Shown here piece by piece: positions 7,799-7,997 of a DNA stretch of 64,000 nucleotides. The notes under the pieces were generated by a model. That model was given only the letters and a program-made list of their open reading frames with translations. It was not told the DNA's origin and did not search any database. This DNA is from Escherichia coli (GTDB lineage: Bacteria; Pseudomonadota; Gammaproteobacteria; Enterobacterales; Enterobacteriaceae): the NCBI RefSeq assembly GCF_001677475.2, contig NZ_CP015229.1. The stretch is one strand, 5' to 3'. How positions within the stretch are numbered: position 1 is the first letter of the stretch; every line of letters begins with the position of its first letter. The position numbers and the translations under genes are program-made.

Positions 7799-7808
7799 GG
7801 TTGCCGTT

Positions 7809-7997
7809 ATTACTCAACATCTCCATTTCCGCTGTCCATGTTGTCATGGTTCACAGTACCGCACATCGGCATTCGATGTGACGGAGCGAAACCCTTTGGG
7901 CGCTAAGTGTATTTTTTGTAAATCGACGATGATCACCTTTGATAACGTCGCGCTGCAAATACGCACTGAGCATGCGCCGCTGGATTTCACAAAATAA
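7809..7997 (+). CDS. Putative small zinc-ribbon protein just downstream of cspG (YmcF-like); start codon uncertain and possibly non-ATG
   Basis: Frame open from cspG stop; encodes ...TQHLHFRCPCCHGSQYRTSAFDVTERNPLGAKCIFCKSTMITF... with CPCC...CIFC motif; the only ATG lies far upstream inside cspG. Confidence 0.4.
   Translation: MTQHLHFRCPCCHGSQYRTSAFDVTERNPLGAKCIFCKSTMITFDNVALQIRTEHAPLDFTK

Follow-up and report, generated by a model that had tools for sequence, protein, structure and literature searches.

Positions 7809-7997 (plus strand) of the 64,000-nucleotide (nt) stretch of Escherichia coli DNA analysed here, which comes from contig NZ_CP015229.1 (assembly GCF_001677475.2) and is called the window throughout, are read as ymcF, the second cistron of a cold-shock unit, cspG-ymcF, translated independently from an AUU codon at 7809; we assign this reading a probability of about 0.93. 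The gene comprises 62 codons followed by TAA (7995-7997), lies 10 bases 3′ of cspG and encodes a small protein with four cysteines, whose translation from 7809 is ITQHLHFRCPCCHGSQYRTSAFDVTERNPLGAKCIFCKSTMITFDNVALQIRTEHAPLDFTK. Comparison with existing records confirms that ymcF is an already known and annotated gene: the observation is real, and it is not new. The initial annotation of the window was made by a reader without search tools, which picked out a member of the very small class of E. coli genes starting with ATT. The case is a correct re-discovery and a positive control for a type of gene that still escapes many gene callers as well as phage records.

The ymcF gene and its reading frame

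The initial annotation had named a YmcF of K-12 and proposed a comparison with the annotation of that strain, which proved right: ymcF of K-12 MG1655 (b4723, 1051684-1051872) maps exactly onto 7809-7997 of the window, with ATT as its first codon. The coding sequence (CDS) annotated in RefSeq for E. coli, under the product name "cold shock small protein YmcF", has the same bounds. A single nucleotide distinguishes the CDS of the window from that of K-12 (7970, D55E), and the location, between cspG and ymcE/gnsA, is also that of K-12 ymcF. Of 5426 complete E. coli genomes, 5416 were matched by a 501-nt query around the site, and ymcF is the feature annotated beneath it. At the protein level, the Pfam family PF23641 (YmcF-like) covers residues 1-62 of 62 with 164.4 bits against a cut-off of 27 (E 6.5e-49), and the 137 homologues recovered by protein search all carry PF23641 and all belong to Enterobacteriaceae or their phages. 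No YmcF model was found in NCBIfam, which gave only a sub-threshold match to ECs_2282, and no second copy of ymcF was found within the window.

The features of the locus are as follows, all on the plus strand:
7430-7585, plus strand: 5′ leader of cspG, a cspA-type cold-shock thermoregulator RNA and likely transcript start of cspG-ymcF (Rfam RF01766)
7586-7798, plus strand: cspG CDS, 70 amino acids, the upstream cistron (list of open reading frames (ORFs); annotated as cspG in RefSeq and K-12)
7796-7800, plus strand: UAAGG, the cspG stop overlapping the ymcF Shine-Dalgarno (SD) sequence (AAGG), 8 nt before the start codon (read from the sequence; T[AG]AGG conserved)
7809-7811, plus strand: ATT start codon of ymcF (K-12 and RefSeq annotation; conservation across loci)
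7833-7844, plus strand: first cysteine knuckle, C9-P-C-C12 (codons 9-12), then H13 G S Q Y R (translation; C9 and C12 invariant in 39 sequences)
7908-7919, plus strand: second cysteine knuckle, C34-I-F-C37 (codons 34-37) (translation; across 39 sequences C37 never varies and C34 is conserved in at least 90%)
8002-8026, plus strand: intrinsic terminator-like hairpin and T run (terminator scan: stem of 7 bp, 5 of them GC pairs, then TTTTTT)

The 3′ end of cspG reads ...ACG CTC TAA, and the ymcF frame, which is +1 relative to cspG, opens at 7722, directly behind an in-frame TGA (7719-7721), and runs to the TAA at 7995-7997. The small CPCC...CIFC peptide noticed after cspG is indeed encoded there, in an ORF of 62 residues that holds both motifs and ends at that TAA. 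It had been described as read through from the cspG stop, a description that has to be abandoned: cspG and ymcF occupy different frames, and therefore no readthrough of the cspG stop takes place. Likewise, the only ATG in frame was said to lie inside cspG. There is one at that place, 7704, but it is upstream of the TGA at 7719-7721, which cuts it off from the ORF so that it cannot serve as a start, and it is not the only one, since a second in-frame ATG occurs at 7929 (Met41), 3′ of both cysteine pairs.

The ORF is under strong, frame-specific purifying selection and goes beyond what chance would leave open. Over codons 2-46, the ratio of nonsynonymous to synonymous differences (pN/pS) against twenty species is 0.09-0.20 in the ymcF frame and exceeds 1 in each of the two others; for the ymcF core, the median over all pairs is 0.10.

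The position of the start codon

The start codon was placed by comparing 84 loci, namely 80 GTDB species loci with their flanks (the best 80 of 191 hits), three E. coli records and the window, all of them anchored on the invariant Cys9 codon by means of an alignment of 39 of the 137 homologues. At the site homologous to 7809, 44 loci have ATT, three have ATC and 33 have ATG; in the remaining four an ATG is found one to three codons away. Each of the five codons 5′ of the start varies among 8-18 codon types, stops included, and the translated sequence before codon 1 is hypervariable; constraint begins at codon 1. Furthermore, in 14 of the ATT loci the frame is closed by a stop only 12-24 nt before the start, and the interval contains neither ATG nor GTG nor TTG. 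This comparative pattern places the start at 7809 independently of any annotation. As in genes that start with AUU or AUC, no usable canonical start is available to ymcF and its start is conserved among relatives.

The initial annotation had looked for a non-canonical start, ATT or GTT, around 7800-7809. The ATT at 7809 is supported both by annotation and by the onset of conservation; the GTT codons at 7800 and 7806 are not retained. Where the window has GCC GTT ATT ACT, K-12 has GCC ATT ATT ACT, and because the codon at 7806 varies in this way, it is 7809 that corresponds to the annotated start.

A start at a canonical codon inside cspG, giving a protein of 70-86 residues that overlaps the 3′ end of cspG, has to be considered as well. 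Codons of this kind do occur in frame in the window (TTG at 7737, 7749 and 7785, GTG at 7764), and some Citrobacter and Kosakonia database entries have been called at 70-72 residues. However, these codons lack conservation, in-frame stops stand 12-30 nt 5′ of the ATT in many species, and the protein sequence before codon 1 is the hypervariable part. Moreover, the Pfam profile starts at codon 1, TTG 7785 is not preceded by an SD sequence, and homologues that stand alone, away from any csp gene, have ATG exactly at the position of the ATT. The hypervariable upstream codons, the nearby stops and the alternation of ATT, ATC and ATG at one and the same site exclude TTG or GTG as the start of the family, and for the window itself we regard a start within cspG as very improbable.

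YmcF has reportedly been detected as a protein. It and its K-12 paralogue YnfQ are reported to be cold-induced, their ATT starts having been identified by mutagenesis.

The proposed cspG-ymcF transcript and the use of AUU

The cspA thermoregulator model of Rfam (RF01766) matches 7430-7852 over its full length, scoring 162 bits (gathering score 78), and the terminator-like hairpin at 8002-8026 begins 4 nt after the ymcF stop. The cspA-type leader, the RefSeq product name and the title of D'Lima et al. (2017, J Proteome Res 16:3722) would be indirect indications that YmcF is made and is induced by cold shock. The simplest reading of these sequence elements would be a two-gene cold-shock transcript, cspG-ymcF, extending from the leader at about 7430 to the terminator at 8002-8026. 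Transcription would thus proceed from the cspG promoter through the cspA-type leader and would end at 8002-8026. On this messenger, ymcF would be initiated independently, at AUU 7809, by means of the SD sequence UAAGG overlapping the cspG stop, and YmcF would be neither a continuation of CspG nor a frameshifted extension of it.

The Rfam match reaches 44 nt into the ORF, which raises the possibility that the region acts mainly as a functional RNA, either as the 3′ untranslated region of cspG or as a small RNA (sRNA) derived from its 3′ end, the ORF being incidental. In the same direction points the Salmonella sRNA STnc220, which maps on the final ~43 nt of the homologous ORF and the terminator, with a sub-threshold match in the window. 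Nevertheless, the frame-specific purifying selection on codons 2-46 is strong, and the pattern of Cys, Gly and Pro residues is invariant while synonymous sites are saturated. An RNA role of the 3′ end could, moreover, coexist with coding and would not replace it. We consider it extremely unlikely that the ORF is incidental, and retain ymcF as a coding gene.

STnc220 deserves a comment on its own account. The Rfam family (RF02077) scores above threshold, with 102 bits, where the ymcF homologue of Salmonella ends and its terminator follows (loci L016 and L024, 2647-2726); in the window it gives a sub-threshold 29.9 bits at 7955-8035. From this mapping, the "sRNA" would be the 3′ end of the csp-ymcF messenger, and STnc220 is possibly a fragment derived from it.

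Also at this end of the unit lies ymcE (annotated at 7972-8202, 76 amino acids, Pfam "YmcE_antitoxin"), which starts 26 nt inside ymcF. The ymcE frame spans the terminator at 8002-8026, and its expression would need either terminator readthrough or an internal promoter.

The spacing of the SD sequence, T[AG]AGG followed by 8 nt, is conserved. T[AG]AGG is present in every csp-adjacent homologue, and the distance from the csp stop to the start is 9-10 nt in all of them except locus L032 (29 nt): 9 nt in seven loci, where both genes share a frame with an intervening stop, and 10 nt in about 33. As is usual in coupled second cistrons, the ymcF start in the window is near the upstream stop, at 10 nt, and its SD sequence overlaps that stop. 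Judging from this arrangement, translational coupling of ymcF to cspG is plausible. One homologue weighs against an obligatory dependence of this kind: the Pseudescherichia vulneris copy, which stands alone and has ATT, indicates that coupling is not required in every case.

A hairpin masking the start was considered as the basis of coupling. For the E. coli sequence, pairing is predicted between the end of cspG and the SD sequence and start of ymcF (7764-7813, free energy -27.2 kcal/mol, z -1.7). No consensus structure for this segment was found across 22 genera, and the masking hairpin was therefore rejected as a feature of the family.

The same junction bears on another explanation, in which the YmcF residues would be a C-terminal extension of CspG, reached either by readthrough or by slippage into the +1 frame at CUC-UAA. 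The ymcF frame is indeed +1 to cspG and open across its stop, and in Citrobacter sedlakii (L013) csp and ymcF share one continuous frame. The frame relation, however, is not fixed, as gaps of 9 and 10 nt both occur; the conservation begins at codon 1 and not at the junction; and stand-alone homologues without csp retain the same 62-residue protein. In prfB, CUU-U allows re-pairing for a +1 slip. The sequence CUC-UAA-G of cspG permits no such re-pairing at CUC-U, no upstream SD sequence accompanies it, and with the variable frame relation the marks of a programmed +1 frameshift of the prfB type are absent here. An extension of CspG is accordingly given hardly any weight, and independent initiation at 7809 is preferred. 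As for the locus of C. sedlakii NBRC 105722 (L013, 2297-2689), in which csp and the ymcF homologue are continuous, with no stop between them and with ATG at the position of the ymcF start, it would be either a natural Csp-YmcF fusion or an indel of the draft assembly.

The way in which this start would operate can be approached from what is known about AUU. In reporters, AUU initiation reaches about 1-2% of that of AUG, and in another system it is six- to eight-fold lower. Translation initiation factor 3 (IF3) discriminates against AUU, which infC uses for autoregulation, and this discrimination has been reported to be weaker at low temperature. The infC gene begins 3 nt after thrS (UAA GGU AUU), and about half of its translation in reporters comes from reinitiation. 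Papers of 2016-2017 give only infC and pcnB as E. coli genes starting with AUU, and one paper mentions AUU, CUG and AUC as bacterial start codons, citing D'Lima et al. (2017).

By analogy with infC, we infer that the weak AUU, discriminated against by IF3, would keep YmcF far below CspG on the same, very abundant messenger, and that ribosomes terminating on cspG 10 nt upstream would supply part of the initiations by termination-reinitiation, a mechanism reported for infC after thrS.

The distribution of start codons in the family is of interest in this respect. All 40 homologues located 9-10 nt after an intact csp gene have ATT or ATC; they come from Escherichia, Salmonella, Citrobacter, Kosakonia, Siccibacter, Pluralibacter, Yokenella, Trabulsiella and phages. 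Stand-alone copies, found in other neighbourhoods with no adjacent intact csp, have ATG in about 36 of 40 loci, these figures being raw locus counts, uncorrected for phylogeny. A cspA-type leader was looked for upstream of the stand-alone ATG copies and was not found. A rough neighbour-joining tree built from the 108-nt core places the ATG copies in at least four to five clades.

Several loci depart from the pattern. Three Pseudescherichia-like loci and one from Atlantibacter have ATT without a csp ORF, and in C. sedlakii csp and ymcF are fused in frame, with ATG at the ymcF start.

Two cases may be mentioned here. One contig of Citrobacter braakii carries both kinds of copy, 3.5 kb apart: L015 is adjacent to csp and has ATT, and L081, 430 nt from the nearest csp, has ATG. 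The stand-alone P. vulneris copy (L075, 2200-2690) has an ATT start, with three ATT codons in tandem, CPHC replacing CPCC and no upstream csp ORF, and upstream it retains a stretch resembling the cspG promoter (atcatgcgttaat[ag]gct).

We tentatively propose, at somewhat less than even odds, that the start codon tracks the gene context and that AUU was favoured by selection, serving as a throttle or as a gate sensitive to cold or IF3 for a passenger gene carried on a cold-shock messenger that is among the most heavily translated, with reinitiation from csp supplying initiations. The association between start codon and context may be new. If this proposal were true, AUU in ymcF would be a selected feature and not a tolerated defect; real selection would make the family a clean natural example in which the choice of start codon fixes the proportion between two proteins that share a single stress-induced messenger.

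The YmcF protein and its comparison with known systems

YmcF of the window has C9, C12, C34 and C37 together with the blocks HFRCPCCHGSQYR and GAKCIFCK, which are invariant or at least 90% conserved in 39 homologues; C11 and H13 are also at least 90% conserved in this set. The AlphaFold model built on the 39-sequence alignment is of medium confidence, its mean predicted local distance difference test (pLDDT) score being 67, with 83-87 for residues 11-40 and below 50 for the tail (47-62). The best Foldseek matches are all zinc ribbons and all have E above 1 (eL43, the N-terminal domain of MqsA, TFIIB and RadD), and a sequence profile search of the PDB gave matches at the level of the motif, none of them significant. 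YmcF would most likely fold as a Cys4 zinc ribbon (C9, C12, C34 and C37) with a disordered C-terminal tail, a label that is plausible. As to its function, our best guess, held with low confidence, is that it may bind nucleic acid or the ribosome through a conserved basic and aromatic surface (R8, Y17, R18, K33 and K38).

The segment CPCCHGSQY (7833-7859, codons 9-17), with its conserved C11 and H13, raises the question of the bound metal. A Rieske-type [2Fe-2S] centre was considered and rejected: there is a look-alike of box II alone (CPCCHGSQY against CPCHGSQY of the iron-sulfur subunits of cytochrome b6f, E 0.047, not significant), with no box I and with a CIFC that lacks His.

Zinc ribbons such as the N-terminal domain of TFIIB, eL43 and the N-terminal domain of MqsA resemble the YmcF model in their short beta strands and in a pair of CxxC knuckles separated by about 21 residues. 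Unlike typical members, YmcF has the additional conserved C11 and H13, and its structure and sequence matches are without significance. Another small protein with two knuckles is YnfU/ECs_2282 (NF047912), a putative zinc-binding protein with a CPxC motif encoded in the same prophage neighbourhood beside csp genes and reported to have an ordinary start. The profile similarity between YmcF and NF047912 is weak (17.6 bits, E 0.0026), and because it is below the cut-off of 37 bits the two are taken as different families.

With regard to the start, a parallel is offered by infC, which, like ymcF, has a conserved AUU or AUC a few nt after the preceding stop; it is also cold-inducible, and its weak start limits expression. 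It differs from ymcF in that its AUU autoregulates through its own product and in the gap, which is 3 nt against 10 nt. We know of no autoregulatory loop of this kind for YmcF, nor would we expect one. In pcnB, the second confirmed E. coli gene starting with AUU, this codon keeps the protein level low; unlike ymcF, pcnB has no coupled two-gene arrangement and no relation to cold shock.

A close relative is YnfQ (b4724), encoded after cspI in the Qin prophage of K-12, a paralogue with 41 of 62 residues identical and with the same length and cysteine pattern. The layout of cspI-ynfQ is that of cspG-ymcF: a gap of 10 nt, TGAGG overlapping the stop, 8 nt and then ATT. Downstream, ynfQ is followed by gnsB as ymcF is by gnsA, although the intervening genes differ (ynfR and ynfN against ymcE) and YnfQ, unlike YmcF, is borne by a prophage. 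A clash of names should be pointed out, as "ynfQ" was also used for a 37-amino-acid ORF between ydfJ and ydfK (VanOrsdel et al., 2018, PMC6001520, Table 1); in NC_000913.3, ynfQ (b4724) is the 62-residue paralogue of YmcF after cspI, and YnfU is a third, different small zinc protein.

Tritos and mEp460, both lambdoid phages, show the same signals, TGAGG, 8 nt and ATT. Most phage records carry no annotation of the ymcF-like ORF, and no PHROG family was found for it. In lambdoid phages, a module made up of csp, a 10-nt gap, an ATT-initiated ymcF-like gene, ynfN and gnsB adjoins the 3′ side of the lysis cassette (L085, 1278-2337, in Tritos; L086 in mEp460_ev081; L084, 1110-2168, in K-12 Qin). The chromosomal array cspG-ymcF-ymcE-gnsA appears to be related to this phage cargo module.
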